This document shows positions 3,224-54,302 of a DNA stretch of 64,000 nucleotides, in pieces. Every line of letters begins with the position of its first letter. The first letter of the stretch is position 1. A program made the position numbers and the translations under genes. Under the pieces are notes generated by a model. The model did no database searches. It was not told the DNA's origin and was given only the letters and a program-made list of their open reading frames with translations. Source of the stretch: a phage; sequence record PX436236.1; one strand, written 5' to 3'.

Positions 3224-3752
3224 TTTGAACCTCTTTAGCGTATTCGCGACATTCAGCAATAAAACGATTAAGCTTACGTTGTTGTTTACGACTTTCTAAT
3301 GTGTACTCATTAGCCAAAATAATAAGCTCATCTTTATCGTAATTTTTAATATCAGAGTAAGATGGGCGACGGTCAACCATTCCAAATACATCACCATTTT
3401 CTAAAGCTACATAACATACTAAATGGTAATCATCGTCTGCCATATTAAGAAGCACACAATCAGCGCTCTCGTTTAAAGAATATACCGAATAACGTAGTCC
3501 AGCGAATTCCACTCGTTGAATAGCCAGATTTACGTCAATAATTTCCAAAGCATCTTCAAAAGAAAGGTCTTCAGCTAAAGCAAAAATAAAAGGTAATTTG
3601 GTAGTATCGCCACGGCTAGATGTTCTGCTTAAGAAATCGTTTGAATAGCCTAGGTCTTGGCGAATTCTATAAAGAACTGAATTAGTTTCATGTGAAAGAC
3701 CACTATGCTTAAACCAATCAATATTTGATATCAGGTCGTCATATAAACTCAT
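3216..3752 (-). CDS. hypothetical protein (178 aa)
   Basis: ATG with strong GGAGGAGAGGAG SD. Confidence 0.55.
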   Translation of the reverse strand: MSLYDDLISNIDWFKHSGLSHETNSVLYRIRQDLGYSNDFLSRTSSRGDTTKLPFIFALAEDLSFEDALEIIDVNLAIQRVEFAGLRYSVYSLNESADCVLLNMADDDYHLVCYVALENGDVFGMVDRRPSYSDIKNYDKDELIILANEYTLESRKQQRKLNRFIAECREYAKEVQNA

Positions 3753-3775
3753 AATATTCTCCTCTCCTCCAAATA

Positions 3776-3793
3776 GGGAGACCGAAGTCTCCC
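3776..3793 (-). repeat. intergenic hairpin GGGAGAC-TTCG-GTCTCCC (minus-strand sense)
   Basis: Identical stem to 42259-42276 but inverted orientation; between two minus-strand ORFs. Confidence 0.45.
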
Positions 3794-3800
3794 AGTAACA

Positions 3801-4394
3801 TTACTTAAGTGAATTAATGTAGTCTTCGATATCAGCAGAAGTCGTATCCATTCCAACTTGTGGGCCTTTAAACGTTTCTACACGAAGCAGGGTGTCTTCA
3901 ATATCAATCTTAGTCAATGCAGCGATTTCAACAACATCATCGGCAGTAGCAATACCCAGGGCAGCCATATTACGAGTTTCACGAATGTACTCAAGCTTAA
4001 CCGCTAGTTCCTGGCGAGAGTCATCAAGTTCCTTAACCTTCAGTTTAATTTCATTACGCATTTCGATATAATCATCGGCTTTCTTACGAAGCTGGGTAGC
4101 TGTACGACGATAAAGGAGGCCAAGTTTAGCATGTACCTGGACATCAGCGCCTCCGGCAATCAGTTTACGAATTTCACGTTCTTTAGAAGCAGCGAGCTGG
4201 TCTTTTTCATTAGCCAATGCACGAATACGTTTTTCTTCATTCACAGACTTAACATGAGCAGTCTGGAGTTCAGTGATTTTATCAATCAGAGTAGAAGCAG
4301 CTTTTGTGTATTGGTCTTCGATTGACAGGTTCTGAGCCATTGCGGTGCCCAGTTTAGAACGAATGAATTCAACGATTTTCTTTAAAGTGTTCAT
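3801..4394 (-). CDS. coiled-coil protein (197 aa), weak resemblance to PspA/IM30-type helical proteins
   Basis: ATG with AAGGAA SD; own GTTTAC/TATAAT promoter upstream; sequence predominantly helical and charged. Confidence 0.5.
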
Positions 4395-4437
4395 AGTATT
4401 TCCTTCAGTTGGTTAACGTTTTGTAATCCATGAGGAC

Positions 4438-4467
4438 ATTATACCCTGTCCTCTGAGGTTTGTAAAC
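4438..4467 (-). promoter_or_regulatory. early sigma70-type promoter (GTTTAC -35, TATAAT -10) with overlapping stem-loop
   Basis: Minus strand GTTTAC-N18-TATAAT upstream of 3801-4394; inverted repeat aggaca/tgtcct spans -10. Confidence 0.55.
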
Positions 4468-4470
4468 ATT

Positions 4471-4869
4471 TTATTTCATTTTTGCGAGGCAAATTTCATT
4501 GGCTTCCCATTGAGCTTGCTTAATAATAGCTTTGGATACAGGAGCCCTTTGGCCATAAGTTTTTGACGTTGAGAGAACAATATGTTTGTTTGCTTCATTA
4601 TGCCAGCCCCATGATTTTTCGCCATGAGTACCTTTAACTACAGCTGACACCTCAACAGAGCAACCACCATCAGAAATCTTGGTTTCGACAACCCATTCAT
4701 TTCTCTCAGCAGCTTCAATTTCTAATCTAGTTTTTTCTTCATACATCGCGGCCCAATCAGTTTTTGCCAAGTTGAAAGTAAGAGCTTTCTCTAGTTCTTT
4801 GGCATATTTTTGTTGTTCAGGTGTTAATGAATTATACAACTCTTGCATTTCTTTATCTTCGATATTCAT
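4471..4869 (-). CDS. hypothetical protein (132 aa)
   Basis: ATG with GAGGAG SD; early promoter plus 10-bp inverted repeat upstream. Confidence 0.5.
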   Translation of the reverse strand: MNIEDKEMQELYNSLTPEQQKYAKELEKALTFNLAKTDWAAMYEEKTRLEIEAAERNEWVVETKISDGGCSVEVSAVVKGTHGEKSWGWHNEANKHIVLSTSKTYGQRAPVSKAIIKQAQWEANEICLAKMK

Positions 4870-4894
4870 TATGTTCTCCTCAAATTATGGGCTC

Positions 4895-4924
4895 ATAATA
4901 TCTTAATCATGAGCCCATGTAAAC
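4895..4924 (-). promoter_or_regulatory. early promoter (GTTTAC -35, TATTAT -10) with 10-bp inverted repeat
   Basis: Upstream of 4471-4869; ATGGGCTCAT/ATGAGCCCAT inverted repeat. Confidence 0.5.
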
Positions 4925-4927
4925 GTT

Positions 4928-5191
4928 TTATTTCATATTATTGAAATAATTTTCTGCATCAAAATCATTACCATGGTAAACTTTGGTAGACGATTTGGCG
5001 TAACCTTCAGCTGAGAACATATTAATCACAACTTTAATTGTATACCACTGTCCATCTTCATTACCCATTACTGCATAGGTTTCATACACCGGGTGTTCAG
5101 GACCGATAACCTTAATATCGTTAACTGTGGCACCAAATTCTTCCGGAACACATTTCATAAAGAAATTAAACACTTCACCATAATTATCCAT
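4928..5191 (-). CDS. hypothetical protein (~87 aa)
   Basis: ORF-track start 5206 is GTG; ATG at 5191 (MDNYGEV) has AAGGAG SD. Confidence 0.5.
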   Translation of the reverse strand: MDNYGEVFNFFMKCVPEEFGATVNDIKVIGPEHPVYETYAVMGNEDGQWYTIKVVINMFSAEGYAKSSTKVYHGNDFDAENYFNNMK

Positions 5192-5226
5192 TTTACTCTC
5201 CTTCACTCTGTTGTTTTGATAGGTCT

Positions 5227-5255
5227 ATAGTATCATGTTCTACGAAAGAGTAAAC
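5227..5255 (-). promoter_or_regulatory. early promoter cassette (GTTTAC-N17-TACTAT) containing GGTCTATAG motif
   Basis: Shares gataggtctatagta core with 8315-8352, 8641-8682 and 42579-42617. Confidence 0.55.
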
Positions 5256-5280
5256 ATCTTTTTTAAACCTTTTAGAAACA

Positions 5281-5307
5281 AAAAAGGCCCAACCTTTCGG
5301 AAGGGCC
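5281..5307 (-). terminator. intrinsic terminator (GNRA-loop hairpin plus T-run), repeat copy 1
   Basis: Minus strand GGCCCTTCCGAAAGGTTGGGCC then TTTTT, just after stop of 5313-5867. Confidence 0.6.
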
Positions 5308-5312
5308 TAGAA

Positions 5313-5867
5313 TCAGTTCTTGTAGAACCGGAATGGGTTTATGTGGAAGGCTAACATAGCCTTAGGGATTTTACGAGACAAAAGACTCTTAAGTTTCCAA
5401 CCACAGTATACACGAAGGTAAAAGGTAATCCCACCTACTTTAAGATACGGAACTGAAGCAAAGACTCCCCATGCTTCGTCATTCCACATCCATAACCATC
5501 CATGATGAGCTTTATCAGGAGAACCGGATTCAACGTCAGGATTACCACGATAATGGAATTCTGAGCTACAATCGCGTCCAAGTTTATGGTAAGCAAAGTT
5601 ATAAGCTTTATTTCGCCATAGCCAAGCTACCCTCTGGAGATAAACACCGCCCGGCATTTTCCTGATTTTAGCCCAACGTTTAATATGACCTTTGTCACCG
5701 TCAATTGGATTATCGTATGTCATCATCCAATCAAAGCCGTACGGTAATTTACCTGTCTTTTTATTGTGGAAAGGAACCACAAATGGGGCAAGGATAACAG
5801 CCAGAACCATAGAGATAAAATCTAGTGGGACCAACAGAACCCAACTCAAATATTTTAAAAGTTTCAT
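5313..5867 (-). CDS. membrane protein (N-terminal TM helices), ~184 aa
   Basis: ATG at 5867 lies downstream of the terminator hairpin at 5891-5906; the longer ATG at 5972 would bury that terminator in coding sequence. Hydrophobic N-terminus LSWVLLVPLDFISMVLAVILAPFVV. Confidence 0.5.
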   Translation of the reverse strand: MKLLKYLSWVLLVPLDFISMVLAVILAPFVVPFHNKKTGKLPYGFDWMMTYDNPIDGDKGHIKRWAKIRKMPGGVYLQRVAWLWRNKAYNFAYHKLGRDCSSEFHYRGNPDVESGSPDKAHHGWLWMWNDEAWGVFASVPYLKVGGITFYLRVYCGWKLKSLLSRKIPKAMLAFHINPFRFYKN

Positions 5868-7719: not shown

Positions 7720-8100
7720 TTAACCCTCGTCTACAATAGTATGGGTATTAGCATTAACAATCTGCCACCAGTCAAAACGATTGGAACCGTAAAGAGGGTT
7801 ATTCTCATTTTCTTTAATGATATCGCGCAGTTCATCTTCAGTAGCGGCCTTTGCGATTAAGTCGGCATAACCGCCACGAGGGTAATAGTTATCACCCGCA
7901 AAGAGCAAAAAGTTTGTTTTGATATTCTTGAATTCTTCAAGTGTAATAACGGACCCATTGGGTTGAACAATATCCACATAACTATACCCTAATTCCTGGG
8001 CTTTATCTACCGCCTCAAGCAGGGTGTCGTGTGCCCACCCAATTTGACAATCTGGTTTTTCAGATGGATTTGCCTGATAATCTGCATACACTTTATACAT
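7720..8100 (-). CDS. hypothetical protein (~126 aa)
   Basis: ORF-track start 8148 is TTG; ATG at 8100 (MYKVYADYQ) lies 1 nt after stop of upstream ORF (translational coupling). Confidence 0.5.
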   Translation of the reverse strand: MYKVYADYQANPSEKPDCQIGWAHDTLLEAVDKAQELGYSYVDIVQPNGSVITLEEFKNIKTNFLLFAGDNYYPRGGYADLIAKAATEDELRDIIKENENNPLYGSNRFDWWQIVNANTHTIVDEG

Positions 8101-8101
8101 T

Positions 8102-8287
8102 TTACTCACCTTTAGAGATTTTATCCATAACAAAAGAAATTGAACCAATTAAAAATGCCACTACTAAAGAGATTATATTCTCGGAAGTTGAAAGCATATC
8201 GAGCATGAATCCTGCAAACATACTAAAGCCAAAAGCGGTAACAGCGGCCAGTGCAGTAACATTTCTAATTAATTCACAACGTTTCAT
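8102..8287 (-). CDS. small hydrophobic membrane protein (~61 aa)
   Basis: ATG at 8287 with GGAGA SD (track start 8299 is TTG); single TM-like segment; early promoter at 8324-8352. Confidence 0.4.
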   Translation of the reverse strand: MKRCELIRNVTALAAVTAFGFSMFAGFMLDMLSTSENIISLVVAFLIGSISFVMDKISKGE

Positions 8288-8323
8288 TTTATTCTCCAAT
8301 CACTCATTTGTTTTGATAGGTCT

Positions 8324-8352
8324 ATAGTATCACACCTATAGACCTTGTAAAC
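8324..8352 (-). promoter_or_regulatory. early promoter cassette (GTTTAC-N17-TACTAT) within palindrome
   Basis: ggtctatag...ctatagacc inverted repeat; upstream of 8102-8287. Confidence 0.55.
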
Positions 8353-8354
8353 AA

Positions 8355-8627
8355 TTATTTTAGATAAATTGCATACTTTTTATAACCAGCTGTTTCGTGA
8401 CGCAACCCTTTTTCATTAGCAAAACGTTCAATATTGTTAATTTGATTCTGGTCGAGTTCTGAAGTATCAAAAACAAAAAAGTTTCGCTTATTGCCTAAAG
8501 TTACGTGATTAGTCAAATCGATGTTATAGAGATGATTTATATCATCAATCATAGTCTTAACAGATTTGTTAATTTTTACTTCCTCATTAAGAATAGATTC
8601 AGCGATAAATTCTTGATAAGTTTTCAT
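8355..8627 (-). CDS. ipI: internal protein I-like (capsid-targeted), 90 aa
   Basis: N-terminus MKTYQEFIAE identical to the T4 IPI capsid targeting sequence; position next to 57B as in T4. Confidence 0.65.
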   Translation of the reverse strand: MKTYQEFIAESILNEEVKINKSVKTMIDDINHLYNIDLTNHVTLGNKRNFFVFDTSELDQNQINNIERFANEKGLRHETAGYKKYAIYLK

Positions 8628-8640
8628 TTTGATTTCCGTG

Positions 8641-8682
8641 CGGTTAGTTTGTTTACAAGGTCTATAGTATCATGCCTATAGA
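8641..8682 (-). promoter_or_regulatory. early promoter cassette within 17-bp perfect inverted repeat
   Basis: GTTTACAAGGTCTATAG / CTATAGACCTTGTAAAC separated by 8 bp; minus-strand GTTTAC-N17-TACTAT upstream of IPI-like gene. Confidence 0.6.
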
Positions 8683-8703
8683 CCTTGTAAACACCTTTTT
8701 AAA

Positions 8704-9396
<693 letters not shown>

Positions 9397-10748: not shown

Positions 10749-10830
10749 AGGGTTCCTATATTGCTTAAGTCCCAGACAGTGTATAATGGTCCTAGGTCTG
10801 TTCCATTCAATAACTGGCTGGGATAATAGA

Positions 10831-11667
10831 TTATGAATTCTTCCATACTTTCTGAGCTGAATAACGCTTACCTTTCGATACAAATTGCTGGAGTGGTAAT
10901 CCTATTACATTAGCCCAATCAGACGGTTTTATCTCTACTAAAGGTCCCTTAATATTTCCAGGGATATAAGCCTTAATCATCACGTCGGCGCCAGCGAATC
11001 CTTTTACCTTACTCCAATCGATTTTTAATTTAGTCGAGTTCGTAATGGTAGGCGTACTCGCGTATTGCTTCAGCAATTCTTCCAGAAATTGCTGACGTGC
11101 TTTAGGTGGAATATAGTGTAAGTTCAGTCCGTACATTAAATTATGCTTACCTAACCCAAGATAAATTATTAAAGGATATTTGTCCCAGTATGGTAGGGTA
11201 TCCTTATGTTTGGCATCATAGATATAAGCATAAAGCTTACCAGGAGACGGTTTAGATACCTGGTGCCCACGAATTCCTTTCTTTAATGTTTCTGTAAACC
11301 ATTTAGCCGATTTATTGTTTACAGCGGCGCCCTCGTTAGCAATCTTATCACGAATACTCTTTCTAAAACTATTCACCAAAATTAATTGACGTTCGGCTTT
11401 GGTTAATTTATTGCCAGGTTTCTTCTGAAGTTTTTCAACCTGTACAGCAGTTTTAATTCGACTCGAGTATCGAGACATCGCAGATGTAAAGCTAGAATAC
11501 TTGATGCCTTTATCTTCAGCGAATTTCTTAGCCGAAACACCTTTAGCCTTAGCGTTGGCATATTCAACGCCTAAAGCTATCCATTGTTGTTCTGAACGAG
11601 TAGGCTTGGAACCTTTTGTAGTTTCAGTAGCCTCGTTGATGTAAGAAAATATACTCATCCTTTCCAT
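10831..11667 (-). CDS. 2: gp2 DNA end-protector protein
   Basis: 278 aa (T4 gp2 ~274 aa); synteny; alternative ATG at 11657 has better SD. Confidence 0.8.
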
Positions 11668-12104
11668 CCTAATTTTTTCAGTGAGTTTTCGGTAATCAAT
11701 CTGAAATTAATTCCCATTTTATCTGCTGTAGCTTTAGCAGCTTTCCATTTATCTTTATTTACACTCCATGTATAATGTTCGTTGATATATCTCTTTTTAG
11801 CAGCTGTAGTCATTTTAGCAGGCGCCGCTGGAGGATGGGTCTCTTTAAAAGGTTTGACTTCGAAAAAGAATTGTTGACCATTGTCGAACTTCACCCAGAA
11901 GTCCATAAAATACCGACGTTTCTTTCCATCAGCGTTACTAAAATATGGAATCACAACCTCTTCCGAGTTCCACTGGACGACATTAGGATGGTTGTCAAGC
12001 CAACGCATAAGCCATGCTTCCCAAGAGGAACGATATTGGATTTTCTTCCAATCACCTTTATATTTTTGTAAGTTTGTAGGTTTAAATTTCCCTGAGTAGG
12101 CCAT
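11655..12104 (-). CDS. 4: gp4 head completion protein
   Basis: 149 aa (T4 gp4 ~150 aa); late promoter TATAAATA and AAGGAGG SD upstream. Confidence 0.8.
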
Positions 12105-12114
12105 AGTGCCTCCT

Positions 12115-12137
12115 TATAAATATTAATATTATTTATA
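12115..12137. promoter_or_regulatory. divergent late promoters (TATAAATA on both strands) for gp4 and gp53, flanked by 9-bp inverted repeat
   Basis: plus TATAAATA 12115-12122, minus TATAAATA 12130-12137; AGTGCCTCC...GGAGGCACT gives identical SD spacing on both sides. Confidence 0.7.
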
Positions 12138-12149
12138 CTCGGAGGCACT

Positions 12150-12752
12150 ATGCTCTTCTCATTTTTCGATCCTATAAATTACGAATCAAAAACAGTCAAG
12201 CCAGATTCCGGCTCATTAACTGATGCCGATGTACTGAGCGTACCGATGACTGATATATTTAGAAACTATAAAGAATATTTTGATAAAGTGGCTAAAAATT
12301 ATACACTTAAAACATATTATATCAGTGGGGCCCCTCGTCCAGAAGAATTAGCCCATCAACTTTATGGTAACGTGCAATTATATTGGGTTTTATTGATGTG
12401 TAATAACGTATACGACCCTTATTACGGCTGGATTACAGGCCAAGAATCTGCGTATCAAGCAGCTATTCAACGTTATGCTACTGCAGGCGGAAACCAAGTC
12501 CTTTATCATGTCAATGAAAAGGGTGAGAAATTCTGGAATCTAGTAAATACTCCGGAAAATCCTTATACTTGGTACGATAAAGGTGATACAGAAAAACGTT
12601 ATCCTCAATATGAAGGTCCTTTGGCTGCAGTAGATATTTACGAGGACGCCATTCGTAAAAATGAATATAAGCGCGAAATAAAGATTATAGACCCTAATGA
12701 CATCGAGTCCTTTGTTTCCGCTTTAATTAGAGAAATGGAAAAAGCGCTATGA
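12150..12752 (+). CDS. 53: gp53 baseplate wedge protein
   Basis: 200 aa; late promoter and GGAGG SD; synteny before gp5. Confidence 0.85.
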   Translation: MLFSFFDPINYESKTVKPDSGSLTDADVLSVPMTDIFRNYKEYFDKVAKNYTLKTYYISGAPRPEELAHQLYGNVQLYWVLLMCNNVYDPYYGWITGQESAYQAAIQRYATAGGNQVLYHVNEKGEKFWNLVNTPENPYTWYDKGDTEKRYPQYEGPLAAVDIYEDAIRKNEYKREIKIIDPNDIESFVSALIREMEKAL

Positions 12753-14536
12753 TTAACATGTCTGATAATGTAAGTTGGTTCGTCGGTGTAGTTGAAGACC
12801 GAATGGACCCACTCCAACAAGGCCGAGTACGCGTGCGCGTATGGGGTATGCATCCCTATGAAAAGGTGCAAGGTCCTGTAAAAGGCCTTCGTACAGAAGA
12901 TTTACCATGGATGTCGGTATTAATGCCTACATCTTCAGCCTCCGTTTCTGGTATCCAAACAGCCATGACTGGTATGGTTCCAGGTACACAGGTTTACGGG
13001 CACTTTCTTGATAAGTGGAAATTAAACGGACTTGTCCTTGGTACATACGGTTCCGCTTCAAGACAAAAGGCTAATCCTAATGAAGGTTTTAGTGACCCGA
13101 CAGGTCAATATCCACTTTATTTAGGTAACGATGCCGCTGCACTAAACCGAGGTGGTGAAGTTGGATATGATGCCACTTCCAACGTAATACAAGATGCAAA
13201 CACCGATGTAGGTATTAATCCTGACGGGTTGGATTTAAGTCAAGTCAAACCAGACGATAATCCTAATTTCACAATAGAAAACATGCTTCATCGTGATGAA
13301 GGGCTTAGACTGAAGGTATATTGGGATACCGAAGGTTATCCTACTATAGGTATAGGCCACCTTATCACACCACAACCTATTAGAGATATGAATCGAATAA
13401 ACAAAATATTATCTAATCAGGTAGGACGAGAAGTTAAAGGTAACCCTGGTGCAATATCAATGGATGAGGCTTCTAAATTATTCCAAGAAGACCTTAAAAA
13501 AGTCCAAAACGATATAGGTCGGCATAGTGTTGTAGGTCCTGTTTACAATAAAGAAAACCGTTCAAGACAAATGGCTCTTGAAAACATGGCTTTCCAAATG
13601 GGATTAGGTGGATTGGCTAAATTCCGTGGAATGCTTAGTGCAATGCTAATAGGCGATTATAAAAAGGCATTTGAGGAAGCTCGTAATTCAGTATGGTTTA
13701 ACCAAACTAAAGGTCGCGCATCAAGGGTGTCAATGATTATCCTCACAGGTAACATGGAATCATATGGTATTATGGCCCCTAAAGAAAGGTCATTTAATGG
13801 CCGTTCGTATAGAATGATTCAAACCTTTGTGGCCCCTACAAATTCAGACCCTGCCGACCCGTGGACTCCAGAAGACACAAGGATTCTTTTTAAAGAACCT
13901 GATTCTAGTTATAAAGGCGAATATCCATATGTCCAAACCATGCAAACTGAAGGCGGGCATATCCAAGAATTCGATAATACCCCAGGGCAAGAACGATACC
14001 GTTTAATCCATCCTACCGGTAGTTATGAAGAAGTTGCTCCTGATGGACGTAAAACTTCTAAGACGGTAGCCGATGGTTATTATATGACCCAAGGCGATTC
14101 AAATACTTATGTTGGCGGTAATAATAAAGTCAACGTTGGCGGCGATGAAACCTATTATAATATGGCAAACGTGCGCCGTCAAACTGATGGGTCTGAAAGC
14201 ATTCATATTCGAGGGAATGAAACCAAAACTGTAGAAGGTAATGGAACTCTGCTTGTTAAAGGAAATGTTAAAATAGTTATTATGGGTACTGCTGATATAA
14301 CTGTTGAACAAGAAGCATATATTACGGTTGAAAAAGATACAACAGTTAATGTCAACCAGAATGCAGATATAAGCGTTAAACAAAAGGCCACAATCAATGC
14401 TCAAAATATGGATGTAAATGTCGAACAAGATTTAAATTTTGCAGCGACGAACATTAATTTAAACGCATCAAATACTGTGCATATGGATGGCGGTTCATTA
14501 GCTAAAGTATCTGGTGGCAACGTACAGGTCGGTTAA
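12749..14536 (+). CDS. 5: gp5 baseplate hub / cell-puncturing spike with lysozyme domain
   Basis: 595 aa; N-terminus ...SWFVGVVEDRMDP...; T4-lysozyme-like motif YWDTEGYPTIGIGHL; C-terminal beta-helix repeats (VxGxxxxx). Confidence 0.9.
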   Translation: MINMSDNVSWFVGVVEDRMDPLQQGRVRVRVWGMHPYEKVQGPVKGLRTEDLPWMSVLMPTSSASVSGIQTAMTGMVPGTQVYGHFLDKWKLNGLVLGTYGSASRQKANPNEGFSDPTGQYPLYLGNDAAALNRGGEVGYDATSNVIQDANTDVGINPDGLDLSQVKPDDNPNFTIENMLHRDEGLRLKVYWDTEGYPTIGIGHLITPQPIRDMNRINKILSNQVGREVKGNPGAISMDEASKLFQEDLKKVQNDIGRHSVVGPVYNKENRSRQMALENMAFQMGLGGLAKFRGMLSAMLIGDYKKAFEEARNSVWFNQTKGRASRVSMIILTGNMESYGIMAPKERSFNGRSYRMIQTFVAPTNSDPADPWTPEDTRILFKEPDSSYKGEYPYVQTMQTEGGHIQEFDNTPGQERYRLIHPTGSYEEVAPDGRKTSKTVADGYYMTQGDSNTYVGGNNKVNVGGDETYYNMANVRRQTDGSESIHIRGNETKTVEGNGTLLVKGNVKIVIMGTADITVEQEAYITVEKDTTVNVNQNADISVKQKATINAQNMDVNVEQDLNFAATNINLNASNTVHMDGGSLAKVSGGNVQVG

Positions 14537-14537
14537 T

Positions 14538-16601
14538 ATGAATTACTACGATAAAGTTGATGAAGTGGTAGGGACTGTAACAAGTCCCTGTGATGACGCA
14601 GTAGGACCCGGTGAATATCGCCGGGTTAAATGGGAATTATATAACCCAACAGGTGCTTTTATTCAACCTGGGAATGGCGTTGAATGGGATACCGAGATTA
14701 TTCCACTAGCTACACATTTATACACACAAAATCCATTTGGTAATAAGTCCGAAACTTTTCCCGCACCTCCCCCACCGGAAGATGGAACAAGTCAAGGTAT
14801 CTGGTGTGCTAAACTCGGAATATTCTTTATTACGCAATTGGATTTAGAAAATTATGTAGAATCGATTGGTGCAACTCTTTTGCCCGGTAATGATTGGTAC
14901 GGCGCTGATTTATCAAAATCTGTATTGTATAAAACATCTATTGAATATGATATGTATCGCATCGAAAACTGTGGCGGTGTATGGACATCACAAGGCCCCA
15001 GAATGGACCCCAGGACGATGATTGCAGTTACGGCTGATTATCATATGTATGTCAACTTTAACGGCCTTGGTGACTCCCGCAGGGCTTATTTGAAGTACTA
15101 TGAGACAAAACCTTGTACTTATGTTGGACTGGTATTAAATCTAGATGTTGATATGAGTATCCCAGGAACTCCGATTCCGGGACCGGTATCCATCGGGTCT
15201 TTACCGCCAGAAATAACCGGGCGAGCCAGGGCAATAAGCTGTGTTCCTTTTACAGCGGAATTCCCTTACAACGGATTGACCAATGCGATTATGGCTTCAT
15301 GGAATACATCTAGGAATTCATTCAAATTATATTGGGATATGCTCCCTGGATGGCCATCATCTGGTGGAACCGATTGGGAAAAATTCTTCGATTCTGGTTA
15401 TAGTAAGCTATCGGTCGCAATGGAAGAGCTAGGCAACTCGGCTGTTGCTATGTGTCAATATGTTCAGCAAATGGCTTTTCTTGCATTTAAAGATGCCATA
15501 TCACAGGTCTTGAATATTGTTGGCGGTGGGTGGGACTTACTTAAAAGCTTTTTACCCTCGATTACTATTATGGGCATGACTATTGACCTAGAAGACCTCT
15601 GCACTTCAGGTGATGGTGTACAGAAATTAAAAGAAGCATGGAAAAACTTTAATTTAGAAGAAACCATCCAATCGATTTATTCTGCCATTGGGTCTGCATA
15701 CGATTATTCGGTTGAACGCGTCAAGATGTATTCGCGTGACCTTATTGATGCAATTACAGACTTGTATGACTGGGCCTGGTCTCAATTGCTTATGGCTGGT
15801 GTTGCATTATCAAAACTGTGTGTAGACCTCGCTCAAATATGGAGTATGCCTCCTATAGTTCCGAACCCAGTTTGGAGCGTTATTACTGCGGTCAAGGAAA
15901 TGATGAAGCAAGTTAAACCACTGGACATGATAATGAGCGGTAACTTTCCAGGATTCACAGCATCAGATGTTTATCAAATGGTTATGGAAAAGGTAGACCA
16001 GAAAATAGACGAAGCTTATGCAATGATTGAGGCTCTTAAAACCCAGGCACTCAATCTGTGGAATGAGATTAAGCTCAAAAAGCAAGAAGTACAAAAACAA
16101 GCTATTGAATTTAAACAATATCTTTCAGGAATGTACGAAAAAGTTACAGACGAGCTAACTGCTCAGAAGGAAGCCGCATTAGCACAAGCTGAAGCTGCAC
16201 TCGAACTTTTAAAGAATAAATATAATCAGATTAAGAACTCTATTACCGAAAGTCAAACCTCCGTTTCTGATGTATTAGATATGGCTTTAGAAGAATTCAA
16301 AAAACTTCCTATTGTGGCTCAAATGGAAGAACTTCTCGGTATGCTCGGAGCTACTGTAGATGATATCATGGTTATATACGAGAACTCAGTAACTAAAGCA
16401 AAATCTTTATATCACGAATTTACTGATGGTTCCAGGTCAATGAAAGACTTGTGCAAATCAATGTATAACCAAATATCAACATTATCCTTAAGTAAGGTGG
16501 TACAATGGATTAATAAGATGCTGGGAATATTCGGTTTAACGATTGCATTTCCATCCCTTTCCATTTGCATACCTTGTTTAGAATCTCCTACTAGGAATTA
16601 A
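14538..16601 (+). CDS. hypothetical protein, 687 aa, occupying the gp5.1-5.4 slot between gp5 and gp6
   Basis: ATG at 14538 one nt after gp5 stop; ends 1 nt before gp6 ATG; no counterpart of this size recalled in T4. Confidence 0.7.
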   Translation: MNYYDKVDEVVGTVTSPCDDAVGPGEYRRVKWELYNPTGAFIQPGNGVEWDTEIIPLATHLYTQNPFGNKSETFPAPPPPEDGTSQGIWCAKLGIFFITQLDLENYVESIGATLLPGNDWYGADLSKSVLYKTSIEYDMYRIENCGGVWTSQGPRMDPRTMIAVTADYHMYVNFNGLGDSRRAYLKYYETKPCTYVGLVLNLDVDMSIPGTPIPGPVSIGSLPPEITGRARAISCVPFTAEFPYNGLTNAIMASWNTSRNSFKLYWDMLPGWPSSGGTDWEKFFDSGYSKLSVAMEELGNSAVAMCQYVQQMAFLAFKDAISQVLNIVGGGWDLLKSFLPSITIMGMTIDLEDLCTSGDGVQKLKEAWKNFNLEETIQSIYSAIGSAYDYSVERVKMYSRDLIDAITDLYDWAWSQLLMAGVALSKLCVDLAQIWSMPPIVPNPVWSVITAVKEMMKQVKPLDMIMSGNFPGFTASDVYQMVMEKVDQKIDEAYAMIEALKTQALNLWNEIKLKKQEVQKQAIEFKQYLSGMYEKVTDELTAQKEAALAQAEAALELLKNKYNQIKNSITESQTSVSDVLDMALEEFKKLPIVAQMEELLGMLGATVDDIMVIYENSVTKAKSLYHEFTDGSRSMKDLCKSMYNQISTLSLSKVVQWINKMLGIFGLTIAFPSLSICIPCLESPTRN

Positions 16602-16602
16602 A

Positions 16603-18561
16603 ATGGCTACTCCTACGAATTACCAATTAACAAGAACCGTTAACGCTATCCCAAAAGTATTTGTGGGAGCTACGTTTGAAGAGATTAAAAAGAATATTAT
16701 CGATTGGCTTTCTAGCCAGGACGAATTTAAGGATTACGATTTCGTTGGTTCGCGAATGAATATCCTGATTGACATGTTAGCTTACAACACCCTGTATATG
16801 CAGCAGTTTGCTAATACCGCGGTATATGAATCTTTCATCGGTACTGCTAACTTGCGTTCCTCCGTCGTCCAGGCTGCACAGGATAACGGCTATTTGCCAA
16901 GTTCTAAATCAGCAGCCAAAACAAGTATCATGTTGACCTGTACCCAAGCCCTGAATGAAAAGAATATTCGTATCCCACGTGGTACTAAATTCTTGGCCTA
17001 TGCCCGTGATACTTCAGCAGACCCGTATGCTTTTGTTACCACGGAAAACGTTATTGCCGTACGTGATGTTAATAACCAATATCTTCCTATCGTATCTTTA
17101 GCACAAGGTCGTATTATCCGTACTGAACTTAAGTATGACCCTAAAACTCCTATTCTTATTCGTGACCCGGATATTGATAGACAGGAAGTTAAACTTTATG
17201 TCGATGGCGCAGAATGGACTAACTGGACTAATAAATCCATGGTTCATGCTGGTAGTACATCAACAATTTACTATATGCGTGAAACCGTAGATGGTAATAC
17301 TGAATTCTTCTTTGGTGAAGGTGTTGCTGAAAAATCAGTTGCAGGTGGGGTATTAGAAGCTAATTATATTGGTGGTTTAAAACCTGTTAAAGATGCTACC
17401 ATTGTTATAGAATACCTTCGTACAGATGGTGAAGTTGCTAACGGGGCAGTGGACTTTAGTTATGCGGATTCTTTGGCATATATTACGGTTGAAAAAATTA
17501 CAGAAAACTACGATGAAAACCCGGATTATGTAGGTGCTGACGGTGGTGGTGACCCTGAAGATATTGAACGTATTCGTGAACTTGCTGTAGTTAAACGTGA
17601 AGCCCAGATGCGTGCTGTAACCGGTACAGATTATGATACATTCGTTTCGGAGCGATTTGGTTCTATTGTACAAGCAGTACAAACCTTTACAGACCCAAAT
17701 AAACCAGGTTATGCCTTTGTTACCATTAAACCTAAATCAGGATTGTATTTGACGGCAGTACAACGCGAAGATATCCAAAATTATCTTTCAGAATTTAACT
17801 TGGCACCTATTACCCCTTCGGTTATTTCTCCTGACTACTTGTTCTTGAAGCATAAAATTAAGGTTTCATATGCACTGAACAAATTACAGGAATCCGAACA
17901 ATGGTTAACGGCTCAAATCCTTTCCCAAATAGACCGTTATTATATTAACGAAGTTGAAATATTCAACCACGGATTTGCCAAGTCTAAAATGCTGACTTAT
18001 ATTGATAATGCAGACCACAGTATCCTTGGCTCTTCGGCTACGGTAACAATGGTTCGCGAGGTATTAAACTTCTTCAAAACACCTGAAGCAGGTATTAAAT
18101 ACTATAATCAATACACCAACCGTTCTGTAACTTCTAGTGAATTTGAGTTCGTCCCAACAAACGTATCTGATGTTGTTAAATCTTACAACGTACGTATTGT
18201 TGCCACAGATAAAGACGAACGAGGCGATGGTAAAATGGTTATAGGTCCTTTCCGACCTGGCGATGTAATTGAAAACCAATACATCCAACCTTACACCGGA
18301 GATGACTTCGATAAAATGGCAGCGCCTGCAGACCAATCGGTCTACTATGTTATTGGCGAAATTGATTATTACTCGGACTTTATTTTCTGGGATATCGCCG
18401 CAATAGGCCTTACTTCCGACCGTTTTGAAGTCCAGTCTATTGAACTTTATGCAGGGCCAGACCAAGACAACATCTTTACCAAAGACGGTTCTTTAATCGT
18501 ATTTGAAGATGACCTTCGTCCTCAGTACACAACTATAGAGTTGGAACCAATTACAATATAA
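16603..18561 (+). CDS. 6: gp6 baseplate wedge protein
   Basis: 652 aa; strong similarity to T4 gp6 as recalled (YQLTRT..NAIP, RSSVVQAAQDNGYLP). Confidence 0.9.
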   Translation: MATPTNYQLTRTVNAIPKVFVGATFEEIKKNIIDWLSSQDEFKDYDFVGSRMNILIDMLAYNTLYMQQFANTAVYESFIGTANLRSSVVQAAQDNGYLPSSKSAAKTSIMLTCTQALNEKNIRIPRGTKFLAYARDTSADPYAFVTTENVIAVRDVNNQYLPIVSLAQGRIIRTELKYDPKTPILIRDPDIDRQEVKLYVDGAEWTNWTNKSMVHAGSTSTIYYMRETVDGNTEFFFGEGVAEKSVAGGVLEANYIGGLKPVKDATIVIEYLRTDGEVANGAVDFSYADSLAYITVEKITENYDENPDYVGADGGGDPEDIERIRELAVVKREAQMRAVTGTDYDTFVSERFGSIVQAVQTFTDPNKPGYAFVTIKPKSGLYLTAVQREDIQNYLSEFNLAPITPSVISPDYLFLKHKIKVSYALNKLQESEQWLTAQILSQIDRYYINEVEIFNHGFAKSKMLTYIDNADHSILGSSATVTMVREVLNFFKTPEAGIKYYNQYTNRSVTSSEFEFVPTNVSDVVKSYNVRIVATDKDERGDGKMVIGPFRPGDVIENQYIQPYTGDDFDKMAAPADQSVYYVIGEIDYYSDFIFWDIAAIGLTSDRFEVQSIELYAGPDQDNIFTKDGSLIVFEDDLRPQYTTIELEPITI

Positions 18562-18588
18562 ACCTCTTCGGAGGTTTAAGGAGATTTA

Positions 18589-21500
18589 ATGTCTGTACAA
18601 GCGCCTTATGTTACTAGTCTGAGAATTGATAAACTCTCGGCTAACCATGTGAGCATTCTTTGGGATGACGTAGGCGCCAACTTCTATTATTTCGTAGAAC
18701 TGGCCCAAACGAAGGATGCGGGTGTAGAAATTCCCGACGATAGATTATTTTGGAGAAATTTAGGTTACACCCCTAATAACGAATGGTTTGAAGAGGCATT
18801 CATTTCTCCTAATTCATTTTATAAAATGCGAGTTGCGGTGGCCGCCCAGGGGTTTGAGCAGTCCGAATGGGTTTACACTGAAGAATTTGAAACTTTCTCT
18901 ACCAACGCATATACATTTGAGCATATGCGCGAATTCACTTTGTCTAATAAATTTATTGAAGAAAAATTCACAAAAAATAATCAGAATTATGTGAACTTTA
19001 ATACCGATGCCATTATGGCTTCCTTAATGACGGAAGATTTTAACTTTACGCCAGCGTATTCGCATTTGTCATCTATATCAAATTATGTTTTAAAAGCCGA
19101 CCGTTTCCATGAAATCCAAGGAAGCATCCAAGCGGTTTGTAAAGACCCTAAACGTTCTATTTTAATGGAACTTGGTGGTGTACTTTACCTTTTAGAAAGA
19201 TTCCAAAGTACTGCTAAGGTTTCTAATGATAAAGGGCAGAACTGGCATTATATCCGTTTGTTTAATGACCGAGTAGGTAACCCTGTTTCGCGTACAGCAC
19301 ATTACCAAACTGAAACTACTACGTATGTTCTAGGTTATGACCAAATATTTTACGGACGTAAATCAAGTGATATTCGTTGGTCTGCTGATGATGTCCGTTT
19401 TAGCTCCCAAGATATAACATTTGCTAAAATAGGTAGTGATATCGACCTTCCATTTGAAATCGAGATATTTGGGTCATATGCAAAACTTCCTTTGCCTATT
19501 TCCACTATTGCTGAAGCTATATGCGCTTCTGATGATTTCATTTATGTTGCAGGTAGAGACAGAGTTTATAAAGCAAAAACATCTGAGGCACCTATAGACA
19601 CCGACCCTAGTTCTCCGACTTATGGAGAGAAGATATTTGAAAGCGGATATTCGACTATCACAGGGAACCCTAAAGCAGTTTGTTATAAATTAGATTCTAT
19701 CCAAGGCCATACATTTGCTTTAATTACAGGTGAAGTTAAAGAAGAAAAAATGGACCCTACGGTCGAATCCAATGTGGTTGATTCTGAATCCAAAGGTGTT
19801 TATTGGTTAGACACTTCAACTGATACATGGACCCGTGTATTTGGAAACACTGAAGAAGAACGTCGTCGTATAGAGCATGGATATACCAGCATGTCTACTG
19901 ATGGAGAGGAATTATTTTTCAGTTCAAGCAACTTTAGATATGAAGTAGAGGTTGATTCTGAGCTTCCTTTGGAATACCCTGAAATTGTCACCTCCGCCGT
20001 TAAATATGTTAAAGATGAACAATGGATTCACGATAAACATTATTTGATGATGAGTTTTAGGTCTAACTCTAAATCCGATTTCAAAGAATTTAAACCTGGG
20101 CGTATGGCTTATTATGCCGAACCATTCTTTAGTTGGTCTCGACGCGATGGAACCCGTTCATGGATTACCACCGGTGACCATGCGATGGTTGTTTATAACG
20201 ATGCTTTATACCAGAAAATTATCGACCTGAACAGTGGTTCTTCACCTGAACGTATTGTTCATGAGATTTGGAGTAAAGGTTTTTGTAAAGTCACATCTCC
20301 TAATATAGAGTTCAACGGCTTTAAGAAATATTCTTCTGGAATGATGATTCACAAATCTACAGGTGAATTGGTTGGATATTTTGAATTTGACTATCGCGTG
20401 CGTGATGAAGTCCGTGTTATTTGGAAGCCTAAAGAAATTATGTTTACGGCAGAATTGCAAAACCAAGAACATGAAATCCCGTGGAAACCTAAAGAGGAAG
20501 TTGGTGAGCAGGACCCAGACCTCCAGCCTTTACTGGTTAAAATGATTCCAGATAGTTATTTGCTTCAAGATAGCAACTTTGAAAAATTCTGTGAATACTA
20601 TCTCCAATTTATTAGTGATGGCTCAGGTACACACTATAATAATTTGTTGAATCTTATTCGTAACCAATACCCACGTGAAGAAGATTCATGGGAATATTTG
20701 TGGTCGGAAATCTATAAGCGTAATATCTATTTGTCGAAAGAAAAACGCGACGAAGTAGTTCGTTTTTTCCAGGCGCGCCAAACCGATTTTTGGTCTACAA
20801 AAGGTACCGAAGCTTCATATAAATTCCTGTTTAAATTGCTTTACAATGAAGATGTAGAAATTGATATCGAGTCCAAGAACTCTATCGAATATGATATCAT
20901 CGTAGAATCTGATAATATCAGTGAAGATATCGTAGGCCAAACGATTTATACTCCTACAGGTCGTAGTAATGTTACTTATATAGAACGAAATTACAAAGAT
21001 GGTAAACTGCAATGGCGTTTAACCATTCATAATCTTTTAGGTCGTTTTATAGTCGGACAGGAAATTAAATCTGAACGTACTTCGTTCAAGGGTATGATTG
21101 TTCAGGGCGTACGTGGTAAAGAGCTTTTGAGTAACAATATCGACTATATCAACCGTAACCGTTCTTATTATGTGATGACCATTAAGTCTAATCTCCCTAC
21201 TTCTCGTTATCGCAACGATGTTTTGAGATTTGTTCATCCAGTAGGTTTCGGCTTTGTAGGTATAACTTTGCTTTCTATGTTCGTTAACGTAGGTTTAACG
21301 CTAAAACATACAGAAACTATTATTAATATCCTTAAGAACTACAAATGGGACTCAGGTTTGCCATCTGAATGGTATGATAGAGTTGCTGTAATAGGTTTTG
21401 ATGGTAATATAGAACGAGACCCTAGAACAGGACTTCCGGTTTATAACGTTGGACCTAAAGCAGGAGAACCGTTTGATATCCCTGCAGATTATGATGCGGA

Positions 21501-21684
21501 AAATGATTTCTCTGTATTCCAAGGTCAATTACCACACGAACGTATTAAAAAGCATAGTCCATTGTTTGACCAAAGTGCTGTGACCTTTGCCAATTGGCGT
21601 GCACTGGTTGATAAGCGTCTTAAAGACGATATTGGAAATCCTAGAGACCCTAAAGTTCCAACTCAGGTAAAAATTAATGATTAA
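18589..21684 (+). CDS. 7: gp7 baseplate wedge protein
   Basis: 1031 aa (T4 gp7 1032 aa); collinear similarity. Confidence 0.9.
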   Translation: MSVQAPYVTSLRIDKLSANHVSILWDDVGANFYYFVELAQTKDAGVEIPDDRLFWRNLGYTPNNEWFEEAFISPNSFYKMRVAVAAQGFEQSEWVYTEEFETFSTNAYTFEHMREFTLSNKFIEEKFTKNNQNYVNFNTDAIMASLMTEDFNFTPAYSHLSSISNYVLKADRFHEIQGSIQAVCKDPKRSILMELGGVLYLLERFQSTAKVSNDKGQNWHYIRLFNDRVGNPVSRTAHYQTETTTYVLGYDQIFYGRKSSDIRWSADDVRFSSQDITFAKIGSDIDLPFEIEIFGSYAKLPLPISTIAEAICASDDFIYVAGRDRVYKAKTSEAPIDTDPSSPTYGEKIFESGYSTITGNPKAVCYKLDSIQGHTFALITGEVKEEKMDPTVESNVVDSESKGVYWLDTSTDTWTRVFGNTEEERRRIEHGYTSMSTDGEELFFSSSNFRYEVEVDSELPLEYPEIVTSAVKYVKDEQWIHDKHYLMMSFRSNSKSDFKEFKPGRMAYYAEPFFSWSRRDGTRSWITTGDHAMVVYNDALYQKIIDLNSGSSPERIVHEIWSKGFCKVTSPNIEFNGFKKYSSGMMIHKSTGELVGYFEFDYRVRDEVRVIWKPKEIMFTAELQNQEHEIPWKPKEEVGEQDPDLQPLLVKMIPDSYLLQDSNFEKFCEYYLQFISDGSGTHYNNLLNLIRNQYPREEDSWEYLWSEIYKRNIYLSKEKRDEVVRFFQARQTDFWSTKGTEASYKFLFKLLYNEDVEIDIESKNSIEYDIIVESDNISEDIVGQTIYTPTGRSNVTYIERNYKDGKLQWRLTIHNLLGRFIVGQEIKSERTSFKGMIVQGVRGKELLSNNIDYINRNRSYYVMTIKSNLPTSRYRNDVLRFVHPVGFGFVGITLLSMFVNVGLTLKHTETIINILKNYKWDSGLPSEWYDRVAVIGFDGNIERDPRTGLPVYNVGPKAGEPFDIPADYDAENDFSVFQGQLPHERIKKHSPLFDQSAVTFANWRALVDKRLKDDIGNPRDPKVPTQVKIND

Positions 21685-22681
21685 TTCTACAGTAGTTTAT
21701 CGTTCTATTGTTACTTCAAAATTTAGAACGGAAAAAATGTACAACTTTTACAGAACAATAGGTGATGGCGAAGACCAGAACACTATGTATGTATCTTTCG
21801 GAAGGGCCCGACCATGGGCCGATAACGAAAATGACCCAGGTTTTGCCCCGCCATATCCTGTAGATGATTCTGAAGGCGTAGAAGACGTCTGGACAAACAT
21901 GATGGGATGCGTTAAGGTTTATAAGAGCATGTTGGATTGTGTTGTCCCGCGCAAAGACTGGGGCGATACCTCTTATCCTAACCCATTTACTTTCCAGATT
22001 GGTGAAATTGTAGTGGCGAACAGCCAGCCGCAAAACCGTACTGATGTCGGTGCCGGGTGGATGGTTTATCGTTGTGTAGATATTCCAGAATCAGGTACAT
22101 GTTCTATTTTGTCCCTTGATAATAAAACCGAGTGTATTAAACTTGGTGGTAAATGGACTTCAAATGTACAGTCGGTTAAAGCCCCTGCAGGACAAGGCGA
22201 TACGGAAGGTATGGTTGATACGGGTGATGGGTATCTCTGGGAATATTTGTATGAGATTCCACCTGATGTAAGTATTAACCGTTGCACTAATGAATATATC
22301 GTGGTTCCATGGCCAGAAGAAATTGCCGAAGACCCGGAACGTTGGGGATACGAGAATAATCTTACTTGGCAGCAAGACGATTATGGATTGATTTATCGTA
22401 TTAAAGGCAATACCATTCGTTTTAAAGCATTCTTAGATTCAGTTTACTTCCCTGAATTTAGTCTTCCTGGTAACAAAGGATTTAGACAGCTTTCGATAAT
22501 CTCTAATCCATTAGAAGCTAAAGCTCACCCATCCGATCCGATCATTAAAGCCGAAAAAGAGTACTATGATGTTATAGACCTCTCCCGCCATTCAGGTGAA
22601 ATGATTTATATGGAAAACCGTCCTCCGGTTATTCGTTCCATGGACCAAACAGAAGAAATTAACATTATCTTCGAATTCTAA
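21677..22681 (+). CDS. 8: gp8 baseplate wedge protein
   Basis: 334 aa, same length as T4 gp8; high similarity. Confidence 0.9.
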   Translation: MINSTVVYRSIVTSKFRTEKMYNFYRTIGDGEDQNTMYVSFGRARPWADNENDPGFAPPYPVDDSEGVEDVWTNMMGCVKVYKSMLDCVVPRKDWGDTSYPNPFTFQIGEIVVANSQPQNRTDVGAGWMVYRCVDIPESGTCSILSLDNKTECIKLGGKWTSNVQSVKAPAGQGDTEGMVDTGDGYLWEYLYEIPPDVSINRCTNEYIVVPWPEEIAEDPERWGYENNLTWQQDDYGLIYRIKGNTIRFKAFLDSVYFPEFSLPGNKGFRQLSIISNPLEAKAHPSDPIIKAEKEYYDVIDLSRHSGEMIYMENRPPVIRSMDQTEEINIIFEF

Positions 22682-29229: not shown

Positions 29230-29237
29230 TATAAATA
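29230..29237 (+). promoter_or_regulatory. late promoter (TATAAATA) for gp13
   Basis: TATAAATA 22 nt upstream of ATG 29259. Confidence 0.65.
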
Positions 29238-31009: not shown

Positions 31010-31872
31010 ATGTTTGGACATTGGTATAATAGTTCGCTACGTCGCTATATTGTTTTGATGGGTGATTTATTTTCCCATGTTCAAGTAGCACGTCAAAGAG
31101 AAGATACAGGACTTAAATTTATTAAGGTTCCTATTACGTATGCTTCTAAAGAAAGATTTATGGCAAATTTGGGTAAATGGACGGCAGTACAGAATATTCC
31201 AAATCCTAATATGACAGCTAAAGAACGGGCCGAACAAAAAGCTAAAGTGGAAACAGTTCTTCCGCGTATGAACCTCCAAATGGTTGATATGCTTTACAAC
31301 TCACAATATAAAACAGCCCTTCAAAACAGAACACAAATTCAATTTGAGAATGGCGACCCACGTAAGCGTGTCAGCCAATATTCTCCTACTCCGGTTAAAA
31401 TGATTTTCGAACTGGGTATTTACACTAGAACCCAAGATGATATGTTCCAAATTGTAGAACAGATTATGCCTTATTTCCAACCCCACTTCAATACAACTAT
31501 CACTGAACTCTATACAAACGAAATTAAATTTGACCGTGATATCCGTATTGTGTTCCAATCTATAGCAATGGATGAACAATTAGAAGGTGATACCACTTCT
31601 AGACGTCGCTTAGAGTGGTCTATGATGTTTGAGGTTAATGGTTGGTTATATCCTCCTGTGAAGGAAATGGAAGGCGAAATTAAAACCATTTATCTTGATT
31701 TCTTTGCCAACTCAAAGGAACTCGCTCCTGAAGGTAATTTCGAATCGGTTGATAGCGAAGTGGTTCCTAGAGGTGTAGAAGAAAAAGAATGGGACGGTAA
31801 GTCCATTCAAACATATTCACAAGATATTCCAGTGCCTGTCGAGCCAGCGCCTCCAGCACCAAGGAGAAACCC

Positions 31873-53821: not shown

Positions 53822-54302
53822 CAAAGAGATTTCCATTCCTAAATTGGGTCTTAAACACCAGAAATTGGTTAAAGATGAAAAGGACCCTTACAAGGCCCTC
53901 TATATGACAATGGAATCCATTTGTAAAGGACTGTCTGCAGCAGAAACAGATTTTGCTGCTTTACACCTTTTAGAATTCAACGGACGATTAAAAGAAAAAG
54001 TAACTAAAGATGGATTCACATATAATTTAAATGACCTTTATATTTGCCAACGACTTGAATTCCAGTTCCAAGGTAAGACATTTAAATTTAAATCACACGA
54101 ACCATTTCAAACATTTGGTCCTGTTGATAGTGTACTACAATCTCTTTATCTTGGTGATGATGTACCAGATTTTCTGGATATGCCTGCCTTTGTTGCTACA
54201 TGGGCCGACGATATAACTTCTACTGTAGCTATCCCTGGTCCTAATGGTCCTATCAAAGGATTGCTTAAAATCATGGATATCTTAAATGAAGAACGAATCT
54301 AA
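53775..54302 (+). CDS. 28: gp28 baseplate hub distal subunit
   Basis: ATG at 53775 with GAAGG SD gives 175 aa (T4 177); the ATG at 53733 has no SD. Confidence 0.75.

Follow-up and report, generated by a model that had tools for sequence, protein, structure and literature searches.

The spikes of contractile injection systems were thought to be capped by a PAAR protein or by a fused iron-binding apex. In phage T4, gp5.4 (PDB 4KU0), with gp5.1, is taken to close the blunt end of the gp5 trimer, and it is encoded in the late operon between gp5 and gp6. The same slot of the same operon is filled differently in the phage DNA analysed here, a stretch of 64,000 nucleotides (nt) of sequence record PX436236.1, which is called the window in the following. 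There, one open reading frame (ORF) of 687 codons occupies the interval. Its product is probably a spike tip that caps gp5 in place of the T4 PAAR cap.

The idea as such has been published. Mattenberger et al. (bioRxiv 2025, Leiman and Belin laboratories) reported that the phages RB43, RB16 and Lw1 do not have gene 5.4 but an orf205w of ~690 codons instead (PMC12407873). A baseplate map of RB43 (17.7 Å, C6-averaged) displays a larger density on the spike tip, and orf205w of RB43 was proposed to be an unusual spike tip (PMC12407873). More recently, an AlphaFold3 model of the gp202 trimer of Klebsiella phage Helios with gp203 was presented, in which a three-helix core docks onto the last strand of gp5 (Viruses 2026, PMC13611949). 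For this family the spike tip is, in short, an already published hypothesis, and the evidence for a location on the virion spike is indirect. What is new here are near-isogenic phage pairs in which the tip is swapped, the covariation of the gp5 ending, and the absence of the T4-type tip genes. The original prediction, which was made from the letters alone, did not recognise the protein; the literature now holds the family, proposed as a spike tip in 2025.

The ORF product is a further member, in Dhakavirus, of this recently recognised family of non-PAAR spike tips, and not a new kind of protein. Its residues 1-682 cover positions 1-684 of the 685 positions of the PHROGs profile phrog_5296 (E = 0), which is labelled 'unknown function', and over 99% of its length it shares 43% identity with RB43 orf205w. 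Among the Dhakaviruses, the window is of the Bp7/WG01/SP18 type: WG01 is 99.3% identical over the compared 17 kb surrounding the ORF, and the proteins of Bp7, WG01, E33 and LHE83 are 100% identical to the ORF protein. The family occurs at full length in at least five genera (42-100% identity). In RB43, KP27, S13, Pm5461 and G8 the homologue likewise lies directly downstream of gp5. Among the 216 matching phage records, 214 contain the ORF at 80% of its length or more, again with 42-100% identity. It is a real gene, and it is tightly coupled to gp5.

A profile search through 1.84 billion representatives detected no relatives beyond T4-like spike loci; it yielded eight full-length clusters, every locus examined was a T4-like spike locus, and the weak matches were tape measures and apolipoprotein-like helices. 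Pfam and NCBIfam contributed nothing above threshold, only coiled-coil noise: a PAAR match in Pfam was absent, as was any recognisable domain of a toxin or enzyme. Searched by sequence, the PDB chains yielded a single match, a coiled-coil adhesin at E = 0.46.

To judge from genome comparisons, the ORF is inherited and exchanged jointly with the last 75-90 codons of gp5. Phage QL01, also a Dhakavirus, is 97.8% identical to the window over 10824-14305, i.e., to gp5 codon ~519, and 99.0% over 16592-21700, with nothing alignable between. Accordingly placed is the break in the proteins: the two gp5 sequences are 100% identical for ~500 residues, then 21-25%. To the right, identity resumes at 16592, 11 nt ahead of the gp6 ATG. 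An independent exchange separates G8 from T4 in Tequatrovirus. Their identity is 98.5% up to gp5 codon ~502 and 97.5% from 10 nt upstream of gp6; between these points G8 has another gp5 tip and the large ORF in place of the T4 tip, 5.1, segC, 5.3 and 5.4. The gp5 body of G8 is 97% identical to that of T4, whereas its tip is 26% identical to the T4 tip and 89% to that of the window. The window tip, in turn, is 21-26% identical to the tips of T4 and QL01 and ~15 residues longer. QL01 versus the window phage and T4 versus G8 are therefore near-isogenic pairs, with flank identities of 97-99% and a single cassette that differs. T4 gp5.4 and the ORF product are naturally interchangeable, provided that the gp5 tip is swapped too. 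Dhakavirus has PAAR-module sister phages at 98-99% flank identity, whereas the RB43 papers do not describe such relatives. A synteny comparison across T4-like genomes had been advised in the original prediction; it turned up the same slot in several genera and the swap with the gp5 tip in two.

Escherichia phage G8 (NC_054915) deserves mention in its own right. Despite its classification as a Tequatrovirus it is devoid of 5.1, segC, 5.3 and 5.4 and carries the large-tip cassette at 3234-5528 of locus L011. Its tip-gene allele, 72% identical to the window protein, is common to SG1, PD112, JEP6 and others. In either exchange the right breakpoint is found 10-11 nt upstream of the gp6 ATG (window 16592-16602; L011 5529-5538). 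This coincidence suggests that the conserved ribosome-binding region and start of gp6 may serve as a recurrent crossover point.

The end of gp5 covaries with the type of tip gene. In all eight large-ORF loci inspected gp5 ends with ...[ST]G[GA][NT]V[QSV]VG, including metagenomic homologues at ~31% identity and one that follows a lysozyme-less gp5. In all six gp5.4 loci, from five genera, the end reads DGSRI[DN]xG. The lysozyme-less spike is encoded on a JGI (Joint Genome Institute) metagenome contig (L018 219-1388); it is a gp5-like protein of 389 residues with an OB domain and a beta-helix, ends with ...IFTGGTVVVG, and is followed after 4 nt by a tip-protein homologue of 743 residues. The pairing is thus independent of the lysozyme domain. 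The linkage is to gp5, not to gp6: gp6 is elsewhere in Cronobacter phage S13, and gp25 intervenes in one metagenomic phage. Covariation and joint exchange are most simply explained by a protein that attaches to the distal face of the gp5 beta-helix, with co-evolution of the two contact surfaces; read in this way, it is the spike tip. A spike-tip extension had been envisaged in the original prediction, and this part has gained support from the missing gp5.4, from two genera in which the gene and the gp5 tip are exchanged together, from the covarying gp5 ending and from the linkage to gp5.

Two rearranged loci may be added. Cronobacter phage S13 (L009 546-1703, 5562-9067) has an extra hypothetical gene of 385 residues between gp53 and gp5 and, in place of gp6 behind the large tip gene, a run of small genes on the reverse strand. 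In Aeromonas phage SW69-9 (L016 686-3894), gp53-gp5-5.1 is inverted relative to 5.4-gp6. Here 5.1 has remained with gp5 and the PAAR gene 5.4 with gp6, which bears on the suggestion that gp5.1 is associated with the spike.

The T4-type tip genes are missing. With T4 5.1, segC, 5.3 and 5.4 as tblastn queries no homologue was detected in the window, nor with gp5.1, 5.3 and 5.4 in the remainder of the WG01 genome. The gp5.4 query is sensitive; it matched 1,422 phage records, and its reach extends to phages of Campylobacter, Vibrio and Rhizobium with identities of 25-35%. A marginal gp5.4 match in the window at 31576-31656 (minus strand, E = 0.045-0.12) runs antisense to a plus-strand ORF of 289 residues, inside an ORF of 59 residues, and was treated as chance. 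When the family was compared by hhalign with the alignments of gp5.1 and gp5.4, the probability was ~0.1% (0.05% for gp5.4). Judged by such comparisons, the ORF is a non-homologous replacement of the T4 tip genes. The claim that it has no T4 counterpart was right, for the sequence (tblastn, hhalign) and for the fold; the profile comparison with PAAR and gp5.4 that had been proposed along with it came out without any similarity (the hhalign value just given).

The AlphaFold2 model was built from an alignment of 61 family sequences with 47 invariant columns, which also served for the analysis of conservation. It has a mean pLDDT (predicted local distance difference test) of 87 and a pTM (predicted template modelling score) of 0.78. 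The three long helices of the published Helios gp203 core are also seen here, separated by long excursions. RB43 orf205w and Helios gp203 share with the ORF product full-length homology, the slot after gp5, the loss of 5.4, a divergent gp5 C-terminus and the predicted layout of an alpha/beta N-terminal part, a three-helix core and a long hairpin. The window protein differs from them by its genus and by a sequence divergence of 57%, and this member is known from genes alone. Among solved structures the N-terminal domain has no relative (no PDB neighbour), and Foldseek against the BFVD viral models matched only the family itself. The Foldseek search, too, had been recommended in the original prediction, and it delivered neither a PAAR nor any other named relative. 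In the connector, pLDDT is 71-90 in the full model versus <50 in the isolated N-terminal model; the confidence thus depends on the C-terminal part.

Conservation peaks in the core helices and the loops after them and is lowest in the hairpin (residues 475-575), which is likely the distal end of the tip. Residues 662-680 are the sole segment above the membrane-helix threshold (Kyte-Doolittle 1.87); the hydropathy analysis revealed no signal peptide and no second hydrophobic segment. Residues 673-682 are modelled as a beta-strand inside the fold, with pLDDT ~90 and conserved prolines. Heptad periodicity is marginal (p ~0.06-0.07), which points to amphipathic helices and a long antiparallel hairpin and leaves a coiled coil undemonstrated. 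Of the composition first described, the PAPPPPEDG motif, the hydrophobic C-terminus and the helical C-terminal half are indeed there, whereas the heptad coiled coil is only marginal. Four cysteines that lie far apart in the chain are invariant or nearly so, C18 and C193 in 61/61 sequences and C235 and C677 in 59/61. A Cys4 metal site is conceivable, as are disulfides linking the N-terminal domain with the C-terminal strand. The iron site of the PAAR apex (3His+Cys) is not present in the ORF protein, since none of its three histidines is conserved across the family.

From these data the following picture can be drawn. The cap would bind the gp5 trimer at the blunt C-terminal end of its beta-helix and replace gp5.4 of T4, possibly also gp5.1. 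A single copy might dock on the gp5 trimer via its base, a stoichiometry and an orientation that we infer. The base would be quasi-threefold, with the hydrophobic C-terminal strand and the N-terminal domain joining the intramolecular three-helix core (294-328, 398-435, 631-664), and the variable hairpin would face away from the phage as the leading end. Contraction of the sheath would then drive the tip with the spike through the outer membrane into the periplasm, a passage that has reportedly been shown for the spike GpV of phage P2. There the tip may meet components of the envelope, as T4 gp5.4 is said to do with lipopolysaccharide (LPS) and PpiD.

Several points weigh against the protein being a spike tip. 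RB43 orf205w could not be co-expressed with a gp5 fragment, and its authors call their own AlphaFold model one of low confidence (PMC12407873). Their map has a resolution of only 17.7 Å and is C6-averaged (PMC12407873). The stoichiometry and orientation of the cap are inferred, and the signal for an internal threefold pseudo-repeat is weak, with an hhalign probability of 25-41% versus 1-4% for controls. In the literature we found no virion proteomics that covers a member of phrog_5296. Mass spectrometry of Morganella phage MP1 missed gp5 as well; the paper on KP15 and KP27 contains no mass spectrometry; the ValerieMcCarty phages belong to Jiaodavirus, and the Jiaodavirus locus examined (PKO111) has 5.1 and 5.4. 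Finally, covariation with the gp5 tip would equally be expected of an assembly chaperone that is specific to this type of beta-helix tip, aids folding or trimerisation of the divergent C-terminal helix and is absent from the finished virion. Yet with such a chaperone the phage would have no tip at all, and the tip density of RB43 would be unexplained. We consider it unlikely.

An ejected, membrane-active protein had also been considered in the original prediction, on the grounds of the hydrophobic tail and a coiled coil. In a wider version, the protein would be membrane-active or akin to a tape measure and not a structural cap; carried within the hub or tube, or attached loosely to the baseplate, it would insert into the inner membrane of the host to form or prime a conduit for DNA. 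The hydrophobic C-terminus and the long amphipathic helices could be taken in its favour, as could weak matches to phrog_305 (4e-4) and to PhageMin_Tail proteins (PF10145; profile matches, 1e-4 to 4e-6) and the entry 'tail length tape measure' in some GenBank records. The matches, however, are limited to residues ~472-635, which are apolipoprotein-like amphipathic helices. No tape-measure family profile of Pfam matched above threshold, and the PHROG matches (4e-4, 5.5e-3) are sub-threshold and overlap the helical region. The true tape measure, gp29, is encoded at 54286-56022 (PF25671, 2.2e-88) between gp28 and gp48 and is unrelated to the ORF; the T4 protein of this family has the long amphipathic helices in common with the ORF protein but is not homologous to it. 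The tail is modelled as a confident beta-strand in the fold, with the conserved prolines, and neither a signal peptide nor a further hydrophobic segment accompanies it. Nor would a role at the inner membrane account for why the outer tip of gp5 covaries with the ORF. The proposal has found no support of its own, the tail being modelled as a strand and the likeness to tape measures being one of amphipathic helices only, and it is distinctly improbable.

Still harder to defend is a non-structural passenger that occupies a variable site within the late operon, for instance with a host-range, anti-defence or exclusion function, comparable to segC of T4. The gp5-gp6 interval of T4 is a known site of mobile or optional ORFs (segC, 5.3), and the function of the family is undemonstrated. 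A passenger, however, would hardly be conserved at full length across those genera, always directly after gp5, always together with the loss of 5.4 and an altered gp5 tip, and confined to T4-like spike loci, as the eight full-length clusters are. That the ORF is a frameshifted extension of gp5 or gp6, an artefact already feared in the original prediction and suggested by the 1-nt spacing on either side and by nothing else, can practically be dismissed: gp5 ends at its family-typical C-terminal glycine, gp6 opens with the conserved MATPTNYQLTR, the ORF is intact in 214 of 216 records, and a confident independent fold is predicted.

If the ORF product is a spike tip, as we presume, it is a most unusual one. 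T4 gp5.4 has 97 residues versus 687 here; it is a beta-cone, whereas the ORF protein is helical, and sequence or profile similarity between them is lacking. The 'tripod' UpfB, which sits on the PAAR protein UpfC of phage P1, is likewise alpha-helical and located at the distal end of a gp5-type spike; it was seen at medium resolution and its function is unknown (PLoS Pathog 2026, PMC12810830). UpfB, however, is trimeric, with three trimers on a PAAR cap, whereas the ORF protein has no PAAR and is proposed to sit as a single chain directly on gp5. PAAR proteins of the type VI secretion system with C-terminal extensions or effector domains share the concept of a tip that carries extra mass into the target envelope. 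They are built on a PAAR core, which the ORF protein does not have, nor does it have a recognisable toxin or enzyme domain.

A bolder extension of the spike-tip idea may be mentioned, although we regard it as rather unlikely. The protein might be delivered as a 'tip plus payload', its amphipathic hairpin and hydrophobic elements rearranging in the periplasm so as to contact the inner membrane or a host factor different from the partners of the PAAR tip (LPS core, PpiD). The cassette would then be a swappable module for host range or envelope adaptation, and the cap a fold not seen before, possibly stabilised by the four cysteines.

The family would represent a third, structurally unrelated solution to capping, spread over several genera of Straboviridae that include phages of Klebsiella and Enterobacter, some isolated with a view to phage therapy. 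QL01 versus WG01/Bp7 and T4 versus G8 define a cassette of 2.3 kb, the exchange of which would test what the spike tip contributes to infection, and the comparison delimits the segment of gp5 that must co-vary with the tip. It also helps to correct database entries. In Roth23 and Roth26 the homologue is listed as 'tail length tape measure', in EBPL as 'baseplate hub structural protein'; no result obtained here backs either label, and both are herewith corrected. T4-type gp5.4, for its part, is labelled 'phospholipase' in many records. In the partial genome of phT4A (L012 4516-5973) the annotated part comprises residues ~193-682 only, and the BFVD entries A0A7T3TJJ6 and A0A7T3TJK5 are adjacent half-length proteins, i.e., a split gene. 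Such truncated or split versions could be sequencing frameshifts or true pseudogenes.

Table 1. Coordinates of the putative tip gene, its parts and its surroundings in the window.
Feature	Position	Strand	Remarks
T4-type late promoter consensus TATAAATA	12115-12122	+	28 nt upstream of gp53 ATG; next plus-strand match only at 29230
gp5, baseplate hub/spike and tail lysozyme, 595 residues	12749-14536	+	Pfam Gp5_OB (3e-61), Phage_lysozyme, Gp5_C; 61-70% identical to T4 gp5 outside the tip
Non-T4-type gp5 beta-helix tip, ~codons 520-595	14306-14536	+	Ends ...KVSGGNVQVG; left part of the cassette
Exchange cassette, gp5 tip and entire 687-residue ORF	14306-16591	+	QL01 has instead a T4-type gp5 tip, 5.1 and 5.4
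ORF of 687 residues, putative large non-PAAR spike-tip protein	14538-16601	+	ATG at 14538, 687 codons, TAA at 16599-16601; phrog_5296, RB43 orf205w family
N-terminal alpha/beta domain, residues 1-200	14538-15137	+	Confident when modelled alone; holds invariant C18 and C193
Pro/Gly-rich connector, residues 201-293	15138-15416	+	AlphaFold2; strand 234-241 (C235)
Core helix 1, residues 294-328	15417-15521	+	AlphaFold2; equivalent to helix Phe287-Ile327 in the three-helix core of the published Helios gp203 AlphaFold3 model
Core helix 2, residues 398-435	15729-15842	+	AlphaFold2; Helios gp203 model
Long antiparallel helical hairpin, helices 475-529 and 538-575, loop ~530-537	15960-16262	+	Least conserved part
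Core helix 3, residues 631-664	16428-16529	+	AlphaFold2; Helios gp203 model; one of the best conserved parts
Hydrophobic C-terminal tail, residues 662-682	16521-16583	+	Strand 673-682 in the model; near-invariant C677
Cysteine codons C18, C193, C235, C677	14589-14591, 15114-15116, 15240-15242, 16566-16568	+	
gp6, baseplate wedge	16603-18561	+	Pfam gp6 domains; right cassette breakpoint 11 nt upstream of ATG

The placement of the ORF is tight. The stop codon of gp5 (TAA, 14534-14536) precedes the ATG by 1 nt, and 1 nt separates the stop of the ORF from the ATG of gp6 at 16603. The mechanical ORF list opens the frame at an upstream GTG (14514); the start at the ATG agrees with the annotation of WG01 and with the N-termini of homologues. 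By Pfam the neighbours are gp53, gp5 (OB, lysozyme and C-terminal beta-helix repeats) and gp6; gp7 follows. Exact matches to the late-promoter consensus number 17 in the window versus 7.6 expected, and the one listed in the table likely drives gp53-gp5-ORF-gp6-gp7 and beyond. Terminator-like sites do not exceed chance level. Without promoter or terminator signals of its own the ORF is a member of the late baseplate operon, its late expression being read from the promoter consensus and the gene order. The original prediction had these matters right: the coordinates with their 1-nt gaps to gp5 and gp6 could be confirmed, the nearest plus-strand late promoter is the one upstream of gp53, and this single promoter together with the gene order speaks for co-expression with the puncturing device.

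Two observations concern the surroundings. gp4 on the minus strand and gp53 on the plus strand are separated by 45 nt, in which two exact late-promoter consensuses stand back to back, at 12115-12122 (plus) and 12130-12137 (minus). They look like a divergent late pair that would serve the head-completion genes and the baseplate operon. Further upstream, the window at ~7896-8706 is not colinear with WG01 (L001 1536-3165), which has ~1.6 kb there versus ~0.8 kb in the window. The WG01 stretch contains internal-protein-like genes (Ip7, Ip9) and small ORFs, and the shared piece amounts to 289 bp at 89% identity; this is a variable internal-protein region.

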